A stretch of 64,000 nucleotides of DNA, from contig CAWHXP010000007.1 of NCBI GenBank assembly GCA_963833425.1, positions 192,001 through 256,000 on the forward strand, given 5' to 3'. Shown here in pieces: positions 7,577 to 50,862 of this stretch. The notes under the pieces were generated by a model. That model made no database searches, was not told the origin of the DNA, and saw only the letters and a program-made list of their open reading frames with translations. The number at the start of each line of letters is the position of its first letter. Position 1 is the stretch's first letter. This stretch comes from an uncultured Methanosarcinaceae archaeon (GTDB lineage: Archaea > Halobacteriota > Methanosarcinia > Methanosarcinales > Methanosarcinaceae). The position numbers and the translations under genes were made by a program.

Positions 7577-9046
7577 ATGTGCGGAATAGCAGGAGCTACC
7601 GGAACTCCTGATACGAATATTAAAGTTAAAAAAATGCTCGTAGCTCTGGAACACAGGGGACCTGATGCCTGCGGAATTTATCAGGCAGAAAATCTGAGTA
7701 TAGGGAATACTTTGCTTAAAATTACAGGAGATATGCCCCAGCCTTTGGCAGGAAAAGGAGCTCTCGTAATCAATGGAGAAATATTCAATTTCAGAGAACT
7801 CGCATATGAATCAGGAATAAGAACAAATTCTGACACTGAAGCGCTTTTTTCCCTGATAGAAACCCGAATTAGTGAGGGATGTATACCGATAGATGCTGTC
7901 TTTTCTGTACTTTCCTCAGTAAACGGAGACTATGCTTTAGCATATGCCTGTGATAACGAACTTGTATTGGCCGAGACCCTGTAGGTGTCAAGCCTCTTTT
8001 TTATTCCACCAAAAAAAGAAAAGAAAAACGAAAAATAATTTTCGCATCCGAAAAAAAGGCTTTGTTTGCTGCAGGAAGAGAAATAAAAGATTTGCCCCCC
8101 GGCAAAATCCTGAGTTTTAATATGAAGAACGGAAGTTTTAAAGAGCGGTCCATCAAAATAAAGCAGCCTCAAAAACGAATCTATGATGAATTTGAAGCTG
8201 TTTTTCATCTGAAGGCTGTCATTGAAAAGGCCTTGGAACTTCGGCTTACATCAACTTCAGGAATTGCATTTTCCGGTGGTATTGACAGCACATTTTTAGC
8301 AGTACTTGCAAAAAGAATTAATCCGGCTACTCTCTCTTTATACTGTAGGGGTTACCCGATTCCCATGATATTACACAGGCTAGAGAAAGCTGCTGAAGCT
8401 ATTGGTATGAAGGATTCTCTGAGAATACATCTCTTGTCTGTCAAAGAAATCGAAACCTTAGTTCCGCAGATTATTCGTGCAACTGAATCCGTTGACCCTA
8501 TGAAAATTGCAATCGGAATTCCTCTATACGTTGTTGCGAAAATTGCGAGAGAAATGGAAAGAGGGTAATCCTTACAGGGCAGGGTGCGGATGAGCTTTTC
8601 GGCGGGTACAGGAGGCATGAGGTTTTCCTTGAACAGGGATCTGAAGTGATTGATAGAGAAATTTATTCTGATATTAAAAAAATTTCAGTGGTCAATCTTG
8701 AAAGGGATGATATGGTTACTATGGCTAACTCTGTAGAGCTCAGAGTACCTTTTCTAGATAAGGATGTAATTAAAATAGGCCTATGCTATCATTCCAGAGC
8801 TAAAAGTGCTGAAAAAGGGCGGCTTGTATATAAGGAAATATATTCTCAGAAAAACAGCAGAGGATCTCCTACAACCGGAACTTCTCTGGAAAGAAAAGAA
8901 AGCAATTCAGTATGGGACAGGAGTTCAAAAAATACTCAATAAGCTTGCCAGAGAAGCAGATTTTTCGCAAAGAGGATGAAAAGCATATTGAAAAGTATCT
9001 AAGGAAGATTGCTTTAGAAAAAGGATTTGAGTTCATAAATTACTGA
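7577..9046 (+). CDS. asnB: Asparagine synthetase B (glutamine-hydrolysing), split by several frameshifts
   Basis: N-terminal MCGIAG, HRGPD, NGEIFNF, FSGGIDS, GQGADELFGGY (off-frame at ~8577) and VELRVPFLD, spread over ORFs starting at 7577, 8062 and 8646. Confidence 0.88.
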
Positions 9047-21180: not shown

Positions 21181-22042
21181 GGTTCTGTTGCATAAAATCA
21201 TAATATAAGCAAAAATTTAGTTTCACAGCAAAGAACATAAAAAAGCAGAATATTTCTCGGATAACATCTAGATTTAGGCAGCTGTTCCGAATAACTTGTC
21301 TATAAAATTGACTTCAGCAAAAACAAATAAATTTAAATTGTCAACCTGTCCTTTTCTTATCATGTGCATGATTTCAATCCTTTTAAAGTCTTACTGGCCG
21401 TATAAAAAGACTGAAAACCTAACAATGGACTAACTATCTATTATATAGACCTATGATCCTGTTCAACAATATTATTCAAATACTTGATTTGTCGAAGGCT
21501 TAAATTTTCAGGTAACATTTTTTCATCTTTCAGTTCATATATAGCAGGTGGATAAGCTAGATTTTTATCAACAGTCATTACCTTTGGAATTTGATTATGA
21601 TTAGAACTCAAAGCTTTCTTAAAGAAACTTTTTGCAGCCGTTCTATCACGTTTTGCACTTAGCATAAAATCAACTGTATTTCCAGTTGAATCAACTGCAC
21701 GATACAGATATTTCCATTCACCTTTTACCTTTATGTAGCTTTCGTCCACTCTCCAAGAGTCATTGGTCGGTTTTAAATATTTACGTATCTTTTTTTCAAT
21801 CTCAGGAGAATACTGATGCATCCTTCTCATTATAGTAGTGTGATCAACTTTTATTCCTCTTTCTGCCATCATTTCCTTCAAATTTCTATAACTAACTGGA
21901 TATTTTAGATACCAACTTACGTTTAATAGGATAATTTCTCCTTCGTAATGTTTCCACTTAAAGGCACTAGATAGCAGATTATCATTCTCTTGATTTCTTC
22001 CTTATTTATTGCACATTTCTGATGAATCTTTGCAACAGAACA
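21181..22042 (-). mobile_element. IS6-family element with a pseudogenised transposase (~21274-21985)
   Basis: TIRs ggttctgttgca / tgcaacagaac. Protein motifs FKWKHYEGEII, WRVDESYIKVKGEWKYLYRAVD and NNIVEQDHR. There is a premature stop at 21441. Confidence 0.93.
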
Positions 22043-36460: not shown

Positions 36461-37379
36461 GTATGAGTCTAGGGAAAACTGGAGAATCTGAGGGAGAAAA
36501 ACAAATATTTTTTTTCAAGCTTTGGTTCTCTTTATTTTTGATTACAAGCTTCTAGTTACAATTAAGATAAAAGAAGAAGGGACAAAGAATATCAAGACTT
36601 CAAGTTACTGAGAATGCTTTTTATCGTTTTATTCGCTTGCATCAAAAACAGCGGGTAGCTACACAGGCACAATTGCAAGACTTGAAAATATACGCACTAA
36701 TTTGCTTTAAAAGAATCCAATTCTACATAGAATTGCAAGGTGGGATTAAAGTCGTTGAGACACTAGCATCTCAACCTGCGACCAAAGCTGATCATTTCCA
36801 GGAAAAAAGTGATAGAATTGAAAAGGAGATAGAACTTCTGAGAAAACGATATGCTACCGAAAAAATCGAAGTATTCGAAGCAACAACAATCAAATTTCGG
36901 GCTATTGCTATTGGCCATTAATTTCAGGCACACGGAAACCATTCATTCAGTAAGCATATTATCGTTGATGCATGATAGCACAAAAACAGCTGAAGATGTT
37001 GTTGCTGTCAATAGCTAGGCTGTCTTTGACCTACCCAATAGTTTTAAAAATAATAATCCAAAGGTCTAAGAGAAATTAGTCGATAAATTAGAGAATTTTT
37101 ACTTTTTGATCAATAGAGTTTATATAAATAGAATTCCGATAAGCCAATAAATTTAGTCATACGTTTATAAAACCGCATATTAATGACTTGTAAAACTCAG
37201 AGATACATGAAAGCTTCTAAATTTTTATCGATCTGTATATTAATCACGACCATCTAGGGAATTTATCATTTAGACAATAAGATGAATTTATTAGAATGTA
37301 TGCTATGTTACCAAGCCAAAAAGTTGCTATATTTATATCGAAAGGATAGAAATAAATGAAAAATAAGTAATTACTTAAC

Positions 37380-38064
37380 CTAGAAATCAGATTTATCTAA
37401 TCTTTTTAAGGCAAGTCCTTTACCGTCCCAAGCTGCTGGATTCTGTGAATCAATTTCAATTGCTTGGTTAAGTGCTGCTATTGCTTCTTCATGCTTGTTT
37501 AAAGTATTAAGAGCAAATCCTCTATTGCACCAAGCTATTGAATTATGCTGGTTAATTTTAATTATTTCGTCAAATGCTTCTATGCTTCATCGTATTTATT
37601 TCCAATAATTAGAGAAAGTCCTTTACCGTCCCAAGCTGAGGGATCTTGTAGATTAATTTCAATTGCTTTGTCAAATGCTTGTATTGCTTCATCAAATTTA
37701 TTTAAACCAATTAGAGTAAGTCCGTTACTTGTCCAAGCATCCGGTTTCTGCGGATTAATTTCGATTGCTTTGTCAAATGCTTTTAGTGCTCCTTCAGGTT
37801 TTTGTAATATAACTAGATCAAGTCCTTTTAGGTACCAAGCTTCTGAATCCTGCGGGTTAATCTCAATTGCTGTGTCCTGGGTTTTCATATCTTTTTCGAA
37901 ATAATTTTTTAAATCAAGGTGATTGTTGCTGCCTGAGTTTGGAACATCTGCAAGTTGCTTAGCACCTGAGGTGCCCACTAGGATAAAAACTACCAGTGAA
38001 ATATCCCCTAAAACCGCTAAGCTCTATGCTTTCTACTTACGTTATCACATTTGTCTTCGTTCAT
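37380..38064 (-). pseudogene. Tetratricopeptide-repeat protein, frameshifted
   Basis: Repeated A..AFDKAIEINP...AW..KG units, with frameshifts near 37580 and in the N-terminal hydrophobic segment. Confidence 0.8.
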
Positions 38065-38499
38065 TTTCAATCTCTCGATTCTTATTTAGATATTAATTCT
38101 CAAAAATAACTACAAATGACAAATTAATAATACTTCACTCTGCAAAGTAAACCTTTTACTAAATAAATATATTTATATTTAAATTAAAAGATCAATTACG
38201 TTACTTTTAGCTGTTATATTTTTAAAAAATTTTAAGATTACCAACAGGACAACAGCATTTTAACTTGCAAAACAGGTATTTTGAAAAAATTAACCTAAAT
38301 TCCAACACAAGCCAAAAAAAGCTGCATTGTAAGGTAGAACCTAGTCATCTAAAAAACAATGACGCATAGTTTTTATAGTAAAAACCTATGCATTTTAAGG
38401 TTCCGATAATTCAAACTCATGGATCAACACTTTACAGCTGTTCAATCATTTTAGCATGAAATCAAAACACTCGTAGTACTTATGACAGGTTACAAATTT

Positions 38500-38628
38500 T
38501 TAGTGTCCTTTGTTGCTGTGATGGAATGCGTTTTCGCTTATTGCAGGAGATATTATTGTTGCTACAAAAAAAACAACTAGTAAAATACCCAGTAGTTTTT
38601 TCGTTTGGTTGCGTGCTTGCTTTCCCAT
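38500..38628 (-). CDS. 42-aa ORF that is almost entirely a signal-peptide-like sequence
   Basis: Manual translation: MGKQARNQTKKLLGILLVVFFVATIISPAISENAFHHSNKGH*. Confidence 0.45.
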   Translation of the reverse strand: MGKQARNQTKKLLGILLVVFFVATIISPAISENAFHHSNKGH

Positions 38629-39873
38629 TTGTCTAGATTCCTAACTCTTGTTCAATTTTATCATTAGTTCGATAAACGCCATTTTTTTAGTATATCAAAA
38701 TGTTAATGCAATGGCTATGGAGACACGGTAATGATGATAGTGATGATCATCTTGTTCCTAACAACCTGTGTTGGCATTTGTCGCTGTCTTAGAGAATAAC
38801 AACACTCAAAATTAGAGTGCAATTAATTTCTTAGACATAATACGAATTATATAATCTATATATAAAAAATTTTAGCAGGATAAATATGTAAGATGGAGAA
38901 ATTTCTGGTTTTAATCGGGGAAAAAAGGTAGTGAAAAAGTAAAATAAAAGTTAATGAATAATATTGGTAGCAATTTTTGATTTGGCCAGTGTATCGAAAG
39001 GTCAGTAAATTCCTATTGACTTTGTACCTTTTCTTTACCAAAAAAATAAGATTTATCTTGTTTAATGCATAGGTTTTATCACAAAACCTGTTTATGTAAT
39101 GAATTTAAGCCAGTAAATCATTAGTTGTCCTGGTGAGCTGCAGTCTATTGATGTCTTTGAGACCTGGTTAAAATCATAAAAGAATACTAGCCAGGAATGA
39201 AAATAAAGCTTTACTTATGAATAAAATTCGAATTCGCCCAAAAAAAATAGTTTAAATTTATGTATATGTAGCACTTGACAATCTAAATTTATAAGAACAT
39301 TCTAGAAATTACTCAGCTGACGCGCAGAATCAAGTACACATGCATTATGAATTGATTTTTTTGTTTGTGAGCATAAACCGTTTTTTACGATTGATTTTTC
39401 AGTTTAACTGAGTGATTCCAGCTTAATTTTTAATGCTCTTGATTCTCCACAAGCAAGCTTAGATTTTCTCACAAAAACATATGTGTTTTCGATTTTCATA
39501 TTTGCTATCATCTCTTTTTTTCAGATGCTTAGATTATCTTTATTTGTTTTTTGTTCTGTAAGCTACAGACGTTTGAGAAAAATATGGATTTTTTGTTACA
39601 TCCTTGGAAGTGGGATATGAGCAAAAAAAAGATTCAATTTTGAAGAGTTCCTTTCGTTTTTGAGGTCTACACTATTTTTGATTTTAATGAATTAAGGGAT
39701 CTATCCTTAATTTTATGACAGATAGGTAATGACTTTTCTTGTGTCTTTTAATTAGAGCGCAGAAGAATTAAAGACTCTGATCTATCCATCACATACAACT
39801 ATTGTCGTCATAATTTGTGTCACCATTATCACTTTAAGACTCCCATCCATTCTCACGATTATTGCATTAACAT

Positions 39874-40485
39874 TCATATCCAAATGGTTGGAATTGCGCC
39901 AACTGCTGGGGTTGCAGCAGTCGCTGGGGTTGCAGCAGTCGCTGGGGTTGCAGCAGTCGCTGGGGTTGCAGCAGTCGCTGGGGTTGCAGCAGTCGCTGGG
40001 GTTGCAGCAGTCGCTGGGGTTGCAGCAGTCGCTGGGGTTGCAGCAGTCGCTGGGGTTGCAGCAGTCGCTGGGGTTGCAGCAGTCGCTGGAGTTGCAGCAG
40101 TCGCTGGGGTTGCAGCAGTCGCTGGGGTTGCAGCAGTCGCTGGGGTTGCAGCAGTCGCTGGGGTTGCAGCAGTCGCTGGGGTTGCAGCAGTCGCTGGGGT
40201 TGCAGCAGTCGCTGGGGTTGCAGCAGTCGCTGGAGTTGCAGCAGTCGCTGGGGTTGCAGCAGTCGCTGGGGTTGCAGCAGTCGCTGGAGTTGCAGCAGTC
40301 GCTGGGGTTGCAGCAGTCGCTGGAACTACGCCAATTGTACCCCATTCCCAATCTGGACCCCCATAATCATCATGATATGGATATGCGATTGTTGCTATAG
40401 CTGTCAAAGACACCAAAAGGGAAACTGCCAGCAAAATAGGCAGTGCTTTTTTTATTATACGTGCTGATTGTTTCAACAATTTCAC
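39874..40485 (-). CDS. Putative secreted (PATAAT)23 repeat protein, antifreeze-glycoprotein-like backbone
   Basis: GTG start, a basic plus hydrophobic signal-like N-terminus, a short aromatic/acidic linker, 138 aa of perfect PATAAT and the tail PAVGAIPTIWI. Repeat variants are synonymous in this frame. Confidence 0.75.
   Translation of the reverse strand: MKLLKQSARIIKKALPILLAVSLLVSLTAIATIAYPYHDDYGGPDWEWGTIGVVPATAATPATAATPATAATPATAATPATAATPATAATPATAATPATAATPATAATPATAATPATAATPATAATPATAATPATAATPATAATPATAATPATAATPATAATPATAATPATAATPATAATPATAATPATAATPAVGAIPTIWI
39910..40323. repeat. 18-bp tandem repeat, 23 copies
   Basis: Unit ggttgcagcagtcgctgg, with only three G>A variants (~40090, 40234, 40288). 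Confidence 0.97.
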
Positions 40486-41380
40486 TCCTATGTATTACTC
40501 AAATTATACTATATACGGATTTAATAGAGTTTGTTTTTCATTAGTTTTTTTATTTATCTATCATGAATATGATGAATAATAATAATGCTTATGCGTTTGA
40601 GGAAGAAAATAAGGCACTACAAGAGCGAGAAAATTTATCATAAAGATTGTGCTTAAGATAATTTTAACTTTCATACTACTTTTTTCGCATTTCAACCCAT
40701 AAGCACTATAAAATATATCGATTAAAATTTAAAGTTACTTATAAAATTTGAAAATTTATCATTAGTTAATTACAACACTTTAAAGCAGAGTCGTTTGTTA
40801 GAATATAACTAAATTGATTATTAACCGCAATAAACTCTGAATCTCTTAATATCTCCTATCAGAATGTTAGCAAGAAGCAGCCGAAAATTACATACGAAAT
40901 CATGGGCGAAGTTAACGCTTATAATCATCTGGATAAAAATCCATTTTTATATGTCTATAAAACGCAGAACAATTGAATATAATATTAGTGTTCTTGCTAC
41001 CCCCACTCACCTAATTTCAATCCACTTGAAATATGTAGGGTAGATTTAAAGAAGGGCATTTAAAGAAATATATCTAGTCAATTACGCTACTTAGAAAACT
41101 AATAAGGGATGAATATACAAAATTGACTAAATCAAAACCTCTTGCTAAGAATTAGATGGAAAAATTTGAAATATAAACAAAAAATGCAGTAACTTACTAA
41201 TATAACCACAAAAGATTTCGATAAACCCTAATTTTTGGCTGTTGGTTCATAAACTACATGCTAACAACCTATTGAAATCGGACGTCTATCGAATTTCGCT
41301 ATGAAACAAGAACTATTTGAAAAGTGTTCTCCAAAAAAATTCAGGCAAACATTTCCGAAGAGTTCTAAGAAACTCAAAAA

Positions 41381-41839
41381 TCATTCCTGCTTCTTTAATT
41401 TGGATTTATCCTTTTGCTTAGACCTCCTTTGTTTGAAAACCGAGGGCAAGTGCAGGGCATAAGAACCTTCTTCTCTGATTGCCATAACTAGCTCTTTCCT
41501 TTCCAAAAGAGAATCAAGATTAAGTTCATAAGACCCTGGTCCAAGAATCCTCACAGATTCTACCCTTTCTTCTTCTACTATCCCCTCGGTTTCAAATTCC
41601 TTTTTTTTGTTTTCCTGCTCAGAGGCAAGAGCCTCATCAATACTCCTAACAACTCCATCCAGAGAGGATTCAAGATCCAATTTCTGTTCTCCCATAGCGG
41701 GCTTTCGTTGGATTTCCGAGCTTTCTGACTCCTTTTTAGCGTAAAGGAATTTGTTCCAGCCGCAGGTAGGGCAACCGCTCAAGATGACAGAATCTCCGTC
41801 TTCAAAAATGGTTCCGCATCTGGTGCATCTGTGGGGCAT
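41381..41839 (-). CDS. Zn-ribbon protein (DUF2072/OapC-like)
   Basis: MPHRCTRCG..GCPTCGWNKF and ESVRILGPGSYELNL. Confidence 0.85.
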   Translation of the reverse strand: MPHRCTRCGTIFEDGDSVILSGCPTCGWNKFLYAKKESESSEIQRKPAMGEQKLDLESSLDGVVRSIDEALASEQENKKKEFETEGIVEEERVESVRILGPGSYELNLDSLLERKELVMAIREEGSYALHLPSVFKQRRSKQKDKSKLKKQE

Positions 41840-42246
41840 GAATTCACCGATCAATATATGAGTATAAACTAATTTGTTGAAACTGATATAAGCATACAGT
41901 CGGTAACTTAAAGCAAGTTTAAATTAATATCCTAAACGATATATCTATGTTATACATCTCAATTGTACTTTTAATAAACACTCTGAACAGATATCTATAT
42001 TTGTATTTGCTGCTTAATATTTGCTTTTAAGAGGAAAAGCTATTCTCACTGGTAAAGGCAAAAAAACCATATACGATCGTAAAATCTCCTTAACTTTTCG
42101 GTAGACAAATATAGAGCCTCCATTCTGATGATGCACAAGTCTATATAATTTGTTTGCCCATTTGCCCACTGTTCATAAGTATCTATTGCATCAAAATAGT
42201 TATACTACATCTGATTTTTTGTGGGCTGGATAGTTATATAAATTCT

Positions 42247-45963: not shown

Positions 45964-48900
45964 ATGCTTAAGAGAGCGATGCGTAATCTGCTTTTTAATA
46001 CTAAAGCCACGTTGAATAAAATTAATTAATACTGTTCATGATGAACTTGCTTTTAAATGCAAGGCAGAAAAAGCTGAAATAACGCTCAGAAACAACCGTA
46101 TTCTTAAGGCAATCAATCGGATCTTCAGCATTGTAGTACAGGATAAGACAGAAGAAGATCTGGGAAAAGAGTGCCTTGCTGTAGGTCTATAAGTGACAGG
46201 CAGTCCGCTCGGTTTCGTCAATTTAATGGGTGATTATGGGCTACTGCTCGATATTTTGATCAGCGACATTTGGTTGGAACAGTGCCTGATGTACGACAAG
46301 ACTGGCCATCGCCGTCCTCCGGGAAATTTTGTCGTGCATGGCTTGTATGGTAATGTCATTAAAAACGGGAAGGGATTTTTTACTAACGATCCACTATCAC
46401 ATCAAGATAGTATCGGCGTGACACACGGTCATCCCCAACTCACTTCATTTCTTGGCGTACCCCTAAATCTTAGATGAGAAAATAGTAGGCATGCTGGGGG
46501 CTGCAAACAGAGAAGGGAGCTATAGATGCGAGCAGCAGGAAGATCTTGTAACTATCGTACCAGCAATTGTGCAAGCTCTACATAGGAAAGGAGCCGAAAA
46601 GAAACTGCAGGAAAGCGAGGAGCAATAAAAGGCATTTTGAGAATAGTATTGATGCCGTTCTTCTCACATCACCAGATGGAACCATTGTTGCAGCTAATGC
46701 AGACGCCTGCCGGATCTTCGGTATGACCGGGAGGGAGAAATCATCAGAGCTGGTAGAGAAGGGGTTGTAGATACATCTGATCCAAGACGCCATCCTGCCC
46801 TGGAGGAAAGGGCCAAGACGGGCAAATTTAAGGGGGAGCTCAATTACAAGCGGAACGACGGTACAATTTTTTCAGGCGAGGTATCGACTACATTATTCAA
46901 GGGTAAAGATGACTCGATGAGAACCTTTACGATCATTAGGGATATTACCGAGCGCAAACAGGGACAGGAGATACTACAAAAGAACGAGTATTAGTACCGT
47001 CGTCTATTTGAGAATATTCAGGAAATGATCACTGTTTACGAGGTAGAGCGAGACTATGAGGGAAGGATCATCGAGCGCAGGCTGATCGATGGCAATCCAT
47101 AATTTGTTCGCACAACTAAATACGCTTCCATAGACTAGATTCGTACCAAGACTTCTAGCGAGGTCTTTGGGGAGAATGGGCGGACAATCACTTGTAGGCT
47201 GTTAAAGAAGCTATGGATAGAAATGAGGTGTGGACTCCGGAAGTGTACTTGAGCGAGTCAGACCGCTACTATATCACCATCATCATCCCTTTAGACACAA
47301 ACACCTACATTGGAACTGACCGAGACATCACCGAACTAAAAAATATAGAAAAGGCCCTTAAAGAAGGCAAAAATATCTACCGTGCGATAGGCGAATCCAT
47401 CGACTACGGCGTGTGGGTATGTGATCCAGATGGACGCAACACTTACGCCAGCCCTTCCTTTCTCAAGATGATTGGCTTAACACAACAACAATGTTCGGAT
47501 TTTGGATGGGGTGATTCCACCTCGACGATGCCGAACGCACCATCGCAGCGTGGCAGGAGCGTGTCAGGACCGAAGGCAGCTGGGATATCAAGCATCGCTT
47601 CCACGGTGTGGACGACAAATGACATAAACATATTGGCGCATGGCGTCCCCGTTCGGGACGACGCGGGGAAAATTGCGTGTTGGGCCGGTATCAATCTCGA
47701 CATCAGCGATATAGCGAAAACCTAAATGGCCTTGCATGAAAGTGAAGCGCGGTTCCGTACGATGGTTAGTGCGATCCCACAATTGGCTTGGAATGCTCAT
47801 CCAGATGGCTATATTTACTGGTATAACGAGCGCTGGTATTCTTATACTTGCACAACACCGGAGCAGATGGAAGACTGGGGCTGGCAGAGCGTTCACGATC
47901 CTGAAGTGCTACCAAAAGTACTGGAGCAGTTGAAGGCTTCGATTGCTACTGGCCAGATGTTTGATATGGAGTTCCCACTTCGCGGCGCCGATTGTATTTT
48001 TCGCCCCTTCCTTACGCGTGTTTTGCCTTTGAAAGATGTCAATGGAAATGTCATTCAGTGGTTTGGGACAAATACGGACATCACTGAGCTCAAGAGGGGA
48101 GAGCAGGAAAGTGAGACTACGGTGGAGTTTTTGGATCTCATAAGCGAGACCACGGGGATGGTAGATTTGGGTCATTCTGCCGATAATTTCTTCCAAGATC
48201 GCTCCGGCTTCGAAGCCGTAGGCATCCGACTCAAAGATGGCAATGATTATCCTTACTTCGAAACTTCTGGTTTTTCCAAGTATTCATGAGGTTTGGAAAC
48301 AGTCTCTGTGTACTGAACGATTTTGGACAGCCTATATGCGATAGTGATGGCTATCAGATTCATGAATGCATGCATGAAACGTCATCTGCGGAAGATTCGA
48401 CCCCTCTAAACCCTTCATCACAGCGCGGGGAAATTTCTGGGCCAACAGTTCCGTGGTACAGTTGGCCACTACTACTGAAGCTGATCACCTAGCCCGCACG
48501 CGCAATAGATGCAATGGTGAAGAGTATGAATCCGTAGCCATGATAGCTTTACGCGTGGGTAAGGATAGACGGGTTTTTCTCCAGTTGAAAGATAGACAAA
48601 AGAGCAGTTTACCGTGGAAACTATTTCAATGTGGGAACGGCTAGCAGACTATTTGTCCGTTGCCCTTACCAAGGCGCAGGCTGAGGAATCTTTACAGGAA
48701 GCATACGAGAATCTCCAAATGAAGTCCGAGGAGTTGCATGTTCAGTCTGAAGAAATTCAGGCACAAAACAAAGAGTTACAAACTCAATCAGAGGAATTTC
48801 GCAAAGCATATGAAACCCTGCTGGAGAGTGAGGCAAAGTACCGCGACCTATTCGAGACTGTGAGGAGGTCTTCTACATTGATCTGCTCATCTACGATGAA

Positions 48901-50862
48901 GATGGTAACGTCGTAGAATGGGGTTTCGAGGATTTCAACCCGGATGGATTAAAGCTCCTCGGTTTGAAAAATATTGATGATGCCAAAGGAAAAGGGGGTC
49001 AGAAGTGCTCGGTTGTGAGACACCTTCATTCTATCTTCCCTTGATCGAGAAGGCTCGGCTGTCGAGTAAAGCTGTCATGTTTCAGTACCATAGCCCTTAC
49101 GTGGACAAGGAATTTTTCACATCTTATATTGTTCGTGGCGACCGCCTAATTTCCGCTCAGATGGACATCACAGAGCGTAAACAAATGGAAGATGTCCTAC
49201 GCGAGAGCGAAGCACAGCGTCAGGCTACCAAAGCTATCGACGATGAACGGCAGCAGCTCTTTGACGTGCTAGAGACTCTTCAGACAATGATATGCCTGTT
49301 GACACCTGATTATCATGTCGCTTTTGCCAACCGCGCTTTCCGCGAAAAGTTCGGTGAGTCTGACGGAAGATGCTGTTATGGATATCGTTTTGGACTCACA
49401 AAGCGGTGTGAGTTCAGCGAATCCTATAAAGTACTTGAAACCGGAAAACCCCATAATTGGATGTAGTATACAGGCTTTACATTGGAAGAAAGCTATGGCC
49501 ATGGTTGGAACAAGCCCTTTCACCCAGATGACCAAAAACGTGCTTGGAATGCCTGGCAAAATGCGGTGCACAACAACGGCCCTTATTCTCTTGAATGCCG
49601 GCAACACGGTGCAGACGGCTTCTATCGCTGGTGGCTGATTCGTGGAGTGCCATTCTTAAATGAGAGTGGAGCGATAGATAAGTGGTTCGGTACTTGTACA
49701 GACATCCACGAGATCAAGCAGGCTGAAGAAAAAATTAGGTTATCCAATATTTATAATCGTAGTTTGATCGAAGCTAGCTTGGATCCTTTAGTAACCATTG
49801 GTCATGATGGTAAAATTACTGATGTAAATGAAGCTGCAGAACAAGTTACTGGTTATTCACGGATGAGCTCATTGGTACCGACTTTACGAACTATTTCACT
49901 GAGCCTGAGAAGCTCAGAAAGGATATCAAGAAAATTTCACTGAGCCTGAGAAAGCTCAGAAAGGGTATCAAGAAGTGTTTAAGGAAAGATTTGTGTCGGA
50001 CTATGCGCTTGAAATTCAGCACAAAAATGGAAAAATAACACCAGTTTTATACAATTCTTCAATTTATATGGATGAATTTGGTGATGTTATTGGTATTTTC
50101 GCTGCAGCACGTGACATCACAGAGCAAAAAAAAGCAGAAGAAATTTTAAAGTTGAAATTAAAAGAACTTAACCGCTCAAATGAAGAATTAGAGCAATTAG
50201 CTTACGTTTCATCTCATGATTTACAAGAGCCCTTGAGGATGATTGCAAGCTATTTGCAGCTTTTACAAAGAAGATACGAGGGTAATCTTGATGGTAAGGC
50301 TGATAAGTACATCCACTTTGCAGTTGAAGGGGCTTGCCGTATGCAAAATCTAATATATGATCTTTTAGAGTTCTCTCGAGTGGCTAGAAATACTAGAGAA
50401 CCTGAGACCGTGAATTGTGAATTTATTTTGACTCAAGCATTATCCAATTTAAAATTGATGATAAGAGATAATAAAGCCACCGTATCTCAGGATCCTTTAC
50501 CTGATGTAATGGCAGATTCTACTCAGCTAGTTCAAGTATTTCAGAATATAATTATGAATGGAATAAAATTCCACGGTGATGAAGCACCAAAAATTCGTGT
50601 CTCTGCAGAGAAAAAAGCGAATGAATGGATATTTTTGGTTCAGGATAATGGAATTGGGATTGATACACAATATTTTAAGAAAATTTTTGAAATTGTTAAA
50701 AGATTGAATAAAAGGGAAGAATATTCTGGAACAGGAATAGGGCTTGCAATCTGAGGGCTTGCAATCTGTAAGAAAATTTTAGAAAGGAATGGTGAACATA
50801 TATGGGCAGAATCTGAATTGGGTAAAGGTTCAACTTTTTATTTCACTCTACCAATCAATTAA
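45964..50862 (+). pseudogene. Large multi-GAF/PAS histidine kinase, heavily disrupted
   Basis: GAF (HPQLTSFLGVPL), many PAS/PAC units (WFGTNTDITE, DITERK), HisKA SHDLQEPLR and HATPase DNGIGI..GTGIGL. It has many stops and frameshifts, and the start is approximate. Confidence 0.9.

Follow-up and report, generated by a model that had tools for sequence, protein, structure and literature searches.

A (PATAAT)23 repeat protein of the export-leader type in an uncultured Methanosarcinaceae archaeon, its Thr-less orthologues and its leader-sharing family

The repeat gene and its array

The window analyzed here is a stretch of 64,000 nucleotides from an uncultured Methanosarcinaceae archaeon (GenBank assembly GCA_963833425.1, contig CAWHXP010000007.1, positions 192,001 to 256,000), and all coordinates below are positions within it. 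The gene under study, an open reading frame (ORF) on the minus strand of a gene-poor, AT-rich part of the window (~36.5-41.4 kb), encodes a protein of 201 to 203 amino acids (aa) whose body is a (PATAAT)23 polypeptide, and the initial annotation, made without database searches, had proposed it as a candidate archaeal antifreeze glycoprotein (AFGP). Its parts are as follows.

39874..40485, minus strand: the ORF, 203 aa from GTG, stop codon included (ORF list and translation)
40384..40485, minus strand: signal-peptide-like leader, residues 1-34 (AlphaFold2 helix, leader-profile match, family alignment)
40324..40383, minus strand: acidic aromatic linker YPYHDDYGGPDWEWGTIGVV, residues 35-54 (translation, orthologue comparison)
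39910..40323, minus strand: array of 23 units of 18 bp, (PATAAT)23, residues 55-192 (Tandem Repeats Finder, translation)
39877..39909, minus strand: tail PAVGAIPTIWI, residues 193-203, made of one ancestral-type PAVGA[VI] unit and a hydrophobic ...W-I end

The translation matches exactly the anatomy given in the initial annotation (203 aa with a leader of ~34 aa, a 20-aa linker, 46 tripeptides and an 11-aa tail), and PAT and AAT alternate strictly over the 46 tripeptides of residues 55-192. Tandem Repeats Finder reports a single array at 39905-40323 with a period of 18, 23.3 copies, 98% matches, no indels and a score of 817, a length and perfection far above chance; as a 419-bp near-perfect repeat, it has a copy number that hinges on the genome assembly. 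On the coding strand 20 of the 23 units read CCAGCGACTGCTGCAACC, the remaining three carry a synonymous ACC>ACT change only, and a 24th unit after the array encodes PAVGAI. The G+C content is 0.59-0.61 inside the array versus 0.27-0.31 in the flanks, and the entropy of the repeat body is 2.22 bits. Because the repeat is perfect, four reading frames in the ORF list are open through it; the minus-strand frame given above is taken as the real one because it alone joins a leader and a linker that are conserved in orthologues and paralogues. The plus-strand ORFs through the array (183 and 170 aa) and a second minus-strand frame (189 aa) are without a conserved flank and were rejected.

The GTG of the ORF sits within GGAGTG, which is Shine-Dalgarno-like, and GGAG-type motifs pair with the end of the 16S rRNA. 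Since the family consensus described below and the database relative P0007 both begin MLKQ, with GGAGTG just upstream, the true start is probably the TTG at 40477-40479, which would give 201 aa. The leader has a basic n-region (K2, K5, R9, K12, K13) and a hydrophobic core and ends in ...ATIA before YPY. A single-sequence AlphaFold2 model places a helix at residues 2-33, with a predicted local distance difference test score (pLDDT) of 76-85, and the rest in coil at a pLDDT of ~50 (mean 55.3); the model is compatible with either a cleavable signal or an N-terminal anchor ahead of a chain that has no fixed fold. The signal-like leader of the initial annotation is thus upheld as a predicted export-type leader, by its basic n-region, its hydrophobic helix and its sharing with other proteins. 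From YPY onward the chain holds three Asp, one Glu, one His and no Lys or Arg, and because of this last feature tryptic proteomics would be blind to it. Pfam and NCBIfam scans of the repeat protein found no family and no globular domain, and in Pfam no match to the beta-solenoid domain of DUF3494/Ice_binding (PF11999) proteins; nor was a C-terminal anchor found, the 11-aa tail being too short to span a membrane, so that the initial annotation was right to see neither domain nor evident anchor. The plan of archaeosortase substrates (PGF-CTERM and kin, with a motif, a transmembrane helix and a basic tail) is likewise absent, with no NCBIfam or Pfam match.

Orthologues with a different repeat

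A search with the first 52 aa gave matches at E ≤ 1e-5 in 5 of the 59 genomes of the genus Methanosarcina, the own genome (G000) included. The arrangement seen in the window, with the gene ~1.2-1.4 kb downstream of OapC, recurs at three of 80 OapC loci (L042, L027, L066); the translations at these loci are identical to those of G019, G065, and G067, and the loci probably belong to the same genomes. The four orthologues share the leader, the linker YPYYDDYGGPAWGWG (that is, YPYYDDYGGP(A/V)WG(W/G)G), and the ...W[FI] ends, which read PGFWF, PGLWI or SGLWI, while the G067/L066 copy has a frameshift or stop within its leader. Their lengths of 140-152 aa on an unchanged small plan led us to reject the idea, raised in the initial annotation, that the repeat is the linker of a larger protein truncated here. 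Between the shared ends the repeats are of the form (P/S)A(V/F/I)GA(V/A/I), with 14-16 full units in the three intact genes. Following the leader across Methanosarcina, as the initial annotation had advised, thus led to orthologues with the same ends in four genomes, but a Thr was kept in the repeat of none of them (0/4).

The change from PAVGAV to PATAAT amounts to Val>Thr, which is isosteric, and Gly>Ala. The library of 1.84 billion representatives holds two further relatives: P0019, an 86-aa fragment of the PAVGAV form, and P0007, a 75-aa sequence with two units (...GTIGVV PATAAT PVTAAT PAAGALPSIWI) that shares 86% identity with the window protein. Remnants of the older unit flank the PATAAT array on both sides, PAVGAI after it and, before it, TIGVV, which looks like what is left of an A/V-G-A-V unit. 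At the DNA level the PATAAT and PAVGAV units differ in frame at 7-8 of 18 positions and on the reverse strand at 6-7, and 9% of shuffles reach ≤7; if PAVGAV had given rise to the unit by a frameshift or an inversion, the smallest distances would be 6-8 of 18, whichever the strand, with the same share of shuffles at ≤7. Over the first 50 codons, the three intact orthologues show six synonymous versus 2-4 non-synonymous codon differences.

A family that shares the leader

An own-genome search with the repeat protein returned many short ORFs that match residues 3-50 only. Of the 12,813 own-genome ORFs with a length of ≥50 aa, 36 were found by phmmer at E ≤ 10 with residues 1-54 as the query, and most of them combine an identical-type leader with a quite different body. 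Alignment of 21 own-genome leaders gave a mean column identity of 66% and the consensus MLKQSxSxMKKxLAILLAVLFVVSLTAVAASA. A profile built from this 21-row alignment, which includes the repeat protein itself, matches 80 of the 65,810 own-genome stop-to-stop frames of at least 30 aa at E ≤ 1e-3; the E-value of the repeat protein is 7.1e-15 among the own-genome frames and 7.4e-15 in the genus scan. Most of the 80 leaders end in ASA, and 65 of the 80 frames are no longer than 150 aa. Most bodies consist of repeats rich in Gly/Trp/Tyr, His, Cys/Gly, Lys or Pro, with YPN and PSTVPV repeats among them, and a few members carry what look like ordinary globular domains. In the genus the profile finds a match in 57 of the 59 genomes, with 85, 87, 96, 94, and 125 matches in G000, G019, G064, G065, and G067 versus 0-33 in the other 54, although such matches are not copy numbers and a profile built from G000 favours its near kin.

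A typical member of 109 aa has 51 homologues in a collection of 5.8 billion proteins; all are unnamed or hypothetical except for three with automatic labels, none has an informative name, and a few carry PF23379. A literature search, which took in the available part of PMC4158269, found no description of the leader family. Judged by its leader, the repeat protein is a member of a large unnamed Methanosarcina family that combines a shared export leader with unrelated low-complexity bodies. A second member lies close by in the window.

38500..38628, minus strand: second family member, 42 aa (MGKQARNQTKKLLGILLVVFFVAT...), 1.2 kb downstream (leader profile, hmmsearch E 3.4e-6)

Further family stretches in the own genome are found at C10:7430-106676, in C2, and at C7:69006-72001. 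We also noticed that several members (G000:C10:18719-19015, C8:363116-363433, C2:204669-204899, C2:252263-252784) have a Trp-rich C-terminal motif, frequently flanked by Cys, of the form C-D-W-V-W-x(5-6)-W/Y-V-W-x-C or YEWVYNPxTLVWDWTY and placed after His/Gly-rich stretches. The closest leader (VKLLKQS...) is that of the paralogue at G000:C13:6607-7680 (also L112-L116), which is built of PS(T/G)V(P/A)VPS..., PSAVSDPSAVAI, and PGxVxL repeats, ends in ...PGPWI, PGPCI or TGPCV, and varies in length between 181 and 475 aa in five genomes.

Because the orthologues are Thr-less between the same ends, and some 80 genes share the leader with varied bodies, the Thr repeat is, on the comparisons made here, no conserved functional module; a labile spacer has changed recently and in this lineage only. 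The family design also bears on another explanation, in which the proteins are secreted effectors of competition or signalling, since toxins, antimicrobial peptides and pheromones come in families with a hypervariable mature part behind a conserved leader, a pattern that would suit a diversifying arsenal. Unalignable bodies behind a conserved leader, a large lineage-specific expansion and the Cys-bounded Trp-rich end of some members agree with it, as does the existence of animal families of such design in the available part of PMC4558851. Peptides of these classes, however, typically show a charge pattern, amphipathicity or cysteines, all of which the (PATAAT)23 chain lacks; no genes for immunity or processing were seen adjoining its gene, and the family is without an annotation, down to the largely hypothetical homologues of its typical member. 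We regard an effector role as improbable.

Upstream block and RNA libraries

Conservation around the gene extends to the DNA before its start.

40486..40761, minus strand: non-coding upstream block, conserved in four species (alignment)

The Shine-Dalgarno-like GGAG (40485-40488) belongs to this block, and a TATA-like TTTTATAG, a motif that comes cheap in an AT-rich region, is found at 40705-40712 inside a portion that is nearly invariant in the four species (40694-40761). The block as a whole is better kept across the four species than the coding leader, and G000 is without ~100 nt present before the start in the other species. Rfam searched over 36500-41400 gave two chance-level matches far below the gathering score; the consensus fold of the upstream leader (−9.2 kcal/mol, positive covariation term) offers no convincing structure; and a scan for sigma-70 promoters and terminators, with a model not suited to archaea, found no more sites than in shuffles. 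A small upstream ORF (40561..40695, minus strand) was rejected, G019 and G065 having a stop at its fourth codon.

Twenty sequencing runs hold small shares (≤0.10) of the words from 39300-41000. Contigs were compared over 40270-41000 in four runs, two of DNA and two metatranscriptomes, and in all four a ~95% identical relative with PATAAT-coding units is present. The DNA contigs, one of them from a run labelled peat metagenome, span 40270-41000 with 37 differing letters in ~730. An RNA-library contig of 522 nt with a word depth of 42 covers 40271-40691 and gives no cover of 40695-40944, where the DNA continues, and a contig of the second RNA study lies at 40534-40688. The point at which the RNA contigs end, 40688-40691, agrees between the two studies, and the DNA continues beyond it; this hints weakly at a transcript end near 40690, and so at a putative 5′ leader of ~205 nt before the start. 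The tail of the relative reads ...GALPSIWI in loose contig ends, which show the array broken or collapsed by the assemblers; the summed word depth over the array is 8-15x that of the flank in the DNA runs X1 and X2, a rough figure and not a copy number, which suggests many units rather than two in the relative. We take the repeat ORF to be a real gene that is probably expressed, its expression being read from the relative in RNA libraries, which counts among the points in support of the initial annotation.

These data also bear on a neutral explanation, according to which the array is a product of repeat instability or decay, its Thr unit having been fixed by chance through slippage or unequal exchange, with little or no specific function. 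The resemblance to AFGPs would then be a coincidence of GC-rich Ala, Pro, and Thr codons in a family that tolerates almost any low-complexity body. The extreme diversity of bodies among the 80 family frames and the spread in length of the C13 paralogue among species suit such tolerance, and the damaged leader of the G067/L066 orthologue and the high non-synonymous change in the leader and linker of G000 suit decay, but four species have kept the ORF with its leader, aromatic head and ...W[FI] end, together with 200 nt of the upstream block, and all three unit variants are synonymous. The mere two units of P0007 can be read as instability, yet that form may be an assembly collapse in view of the array word depth in X1 and X2, and the relative is present in RNA contigs. 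On balance we think this explanation unlikely.

Neighboring genes

OapC, an origin-associated protein (41381..41854, minus strand) whose relatives are 88-89% identical, adjoins the AT-rich, gene-poor stretch; no Orc1/Cdc6 was found among the scanned window ORFs of at least 120 aa, and no search for origin repeats was made. Upstream on the same strand are a phosphoribosyltransferase gene and, 3 kb from the repeat gene, two GDP-mannose 4,6-dehydratase (GMD) genes, and a glycan-type cluster at 51.5-63 kb comprises GT2, LPG_synthase_TM, two Acyl_transf_3, GT1, and an ABC-2 transporter. Among 64 OapC loci with the phosphoribosyltransferase, the GMD pair adjoins the latter in L042 only, and because the L042 orthologue beside that pair is Thr-less, there is no tie between the sugar genes and the Thr repeat.

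Elsewhere in the window, adjacent short ORFs carry PAS/PAS/PAS/HisKA-HATPase pieces of one domain set (47213-50754) and GATase_7 with Asn_synthase (7577-8565); both look like genes split by frameshifts or assembly indels. A transposase fragment of 146 aa (DDE_Tnp_IS240) lies at 21444-21881. The own genome is scored as 80% complete.

The antifreeze question

The repeat itself is rare. Residues 55-203 reached E ≤ 1e-3 for only 3 of 8000 scored candidates, namely irregular Pro/Ala/Thr linkers in an actinobacterial-type protein, a yeast wall protein, and ComEA, and residues 1-54 searched against the protein collection gave nine candidates with none at E ≤ 0.01. An exhaustive HMMER search of the 1.84 billion representatives gave 373 matches at E ≤ 1e-3, and the longest [AP]-A-T run in the best 150 of these is 4, versus 46 here; the library is built from genomes and metagenomes and may lack fish AFGPs. 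A locus search with the whole protein gave 599 pattern matches in genome contigs and 598 in metagenome contigs, none of them confirmed by tblastn, and the ESM Atlas gave no usable match. The literature search found no AFGP-type protein from archaea or bacteria, in agreement with the remark of the initial annotation that it knew of no described archaeal example.

AFGPs, in the available parts of PMC6410882 and PMC3721219, are (Thr-Ala/Pro-Ala)n chains with n = 4-50 and a secretory signal, every Thr of which bears Gal-GalNAc, and they arise as secreted polyproteins from amplified 9-nt units. The likeness of backbone claimed in the initial annotation is borne out in full, the 46 PAT/AAT tripeptides being identical to the AFGP repeat. 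One may therefore picture a convergent analogue in which the exported (PATAAT)23 chain would be O-glycosylated on its 46 Thr and would bind ice or inhibit its recrystallization around cells in seasonally frozen peat. In its favour are a backbone that equals the AFGP definition, secretory signal included (PMC6410882 and PMC3721219, as available), a tripeptide run unmatched in the searches above with only three loose matches among the scored candidates, an array that expanded recently as fish AFGP genes did, a relative in peat-metagenome-labelled runs and in RNA libraries, and the GMD genes and the glycosyltransferase/ABC-2 cluster in the vicinity.

The antifreeze proposal thus gains from backbone and export-type leader and loses where the comparison widens, with the Thr repeat in none of four orthologues and the gene as one of ~80 that share a leader. 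One of the Thr-less orthologues belongs to a metagenome-assembled genome labelled bog, and the GMD pair stands beside a Thr-less orthologue as well. According to the available part of a 2014 review (PMC4245038), the only archaeal proteins with documented O-glycosylation of their Thr-rich stretches are the S-layer glycoproteins of haloarchaea, by a pathway that was then unknown. PMT (PF02366) was found in 0/5 subclade genomes (completeness 76-92%), with a control that matched in M. acetivorans, whereas PMT_2 (PF13231) was found in 5/5 and is hence not specific to G000. The genome search for Ice_binding (PF11999) gave none in the five genomes, but its control was also without a match anywhere, so that this search has no bearing either way. 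Lastly, the gene is no polyprotein, as residues 35-203 hold no Lys, Arg or spacer at which a precursor could be cut. We consider an ice-active glycopeptide very improbable.

Favored interpretation

The interpretation that we favor, at a probability of roughly 0.55, is that of a Sec-exported, disordered, possibly O-glycosylated polymer of the cell envelope or extracellular matrix, born by a recent replacement of its repeat. A mucin-like spacer or envelope accessory was the alternative named in the initial annotation, and it suits the Thr-less orthologues and the diverse leader family better than antifreeze does. The leader would route the protein through the Sec translocon and signal peptidase I would cut after ...TIA, releasing an acidic chain of ~167 aa without Lys or Arg, with the aromatic and acidic head YPYHDDYGGPDWEWG and a short hydrophobic ...PTIWI end. 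Its Pro/Ala/Thr stretch of ~138 residues would form a rod or coil with no fixed fold, extended, polyproline-II-like and strongly hydrated, and, should the cell possess an enzyme for Thr O-glycosylation, would offer it an obvious substrate. Retention of the chain in the envelope or matrix is probably the task of the conserved ends, and the repeat would serve as a spacer or brush whose chemistry may be free to change. In the four sister genomes this spacer is of the hydrophobic, elastin-like (P/S)AVGAV type; here a Thr unit would have replaced it and been amplified or homogenized very recently, a timing supported by the 23 units differing at three synonymous sites only.

Several points weigh against this interpretation. 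The leader could be an uncleaved membrane anchor, and the envelope or matrix role is argued by analogy. Descent of the array from older units draws its support from position, the in-frame DNA distance being no better than that of the reverse strand. Over the first 50 codons G000 differs from its orthologues at 17-18 non-synonymous and 5-7 synonymous positions, that is, the G000 lineage is one that, on this count, changed fast in the conserved ends too, and the excess could reflect relaxed constraint in a decaying gene or a new function, for example ice binding. The RNA contigs, for their part, give neither strand nor level.

Whatever the role of the protein, the locus offers a clean natural case of a repeat body swapped (Val to Thr, Gly to Ala) between conserved ends in sister species, and it led to a large undescribed family of leader-sharing, secreted-type low-complexity proteins with 80-125 matches per genome in the subclade. 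Such proteins account for a noticeable fraction of the genes in the peat-associated Methanosarcina subclade, whose envelope or matrix they may help to shape. More would follow if the chain were both glycosylated and ice-active. An AFGP backbone that acts on ice in seasonally frozen peat, by inhibiting recrystallization or through a hydration shell, would then have evolved independently in an archaeon, from a hydrophobic elastin-like matrix protein by a few substitutions and one repeat sweep, which we regard as a long shot. The textbook case of AFGP convergence would in that event reach the archaea, in what would be the first such origin beyond the animals and the third or fourth overall to have arisen by convergence, and a pathway of archaeal Thr O-glycosylation, unknown according to the available part of the 2014 review (PMC4245038), would be exposed.

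Comparison with known systems

The AFGPs of notothenioid and gadid fish, as described in the available parts of PMC6410882 and PMC3721219, resemble the window protein in having a secretory signal followed by (Thr-Ala/Pro-Ala)n, with 46 tripeptides falling within the range of 4-50, and in having arisen by amplification of a short coding unit that left relics in the flanks. In contrast to the 9-nt fish unit, the archaeal unit has 18 nt with strict PAT/AAT alternation, and a single chain with an aromatic head and a tail takes the place of a polyprotein with Arg/Lys or spacer cleavage sites. There is no common descent, and the archaeal orthologues are Thr-less.

Within the archaea, the Thr-rich stalk of haloarchaeal S-layer glycoproteins is likewise a Thr-rich stretch, surface-exposed in the haloarchaea and with disaccharides on its Thr, and the available part of PMC4245038 documents nothing comparable for Methanosarcina. 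The stalk, however, takes up only a small part of its large S-layer protein and adjoins a membrane or lipid anchor, whereas here the repeat is the whole protein and no anchor is present.

The Pro/Ala/Thr-rich linkers and secreted O-mannosylated proteins of actinobacteria, and the PT linkers of cellulases, are extended, protease-resistant and extracellular, with Thr as the sugar acceptor. The weak database matches of the repeat protein are of this linker type. Such linkers differ in being irregular and in joining globular domains, the longest [AP]AT run found elsewhere is 4, and PMT was not found in the five subclade genomes. Elastin-type repeats, made up of Val, Gly, Ala, and Pro, are closer to the orthologues, which share with them the (P/S)AVGAV composition, a predicted secretion and the lack of a fold, with no homology implied; the window protein departs from them in having Thr for both Val and Ala for Gly. 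At the level of the family, the nearest parallel in design is mussel MgCRP-I, for which the available part of PMC4558851 describes animal peptides with a Cys framework, unlike the archaeal low-complexity repeats, but with the same combination of a near-identical leader, an unalignable mature part and many paralogues.

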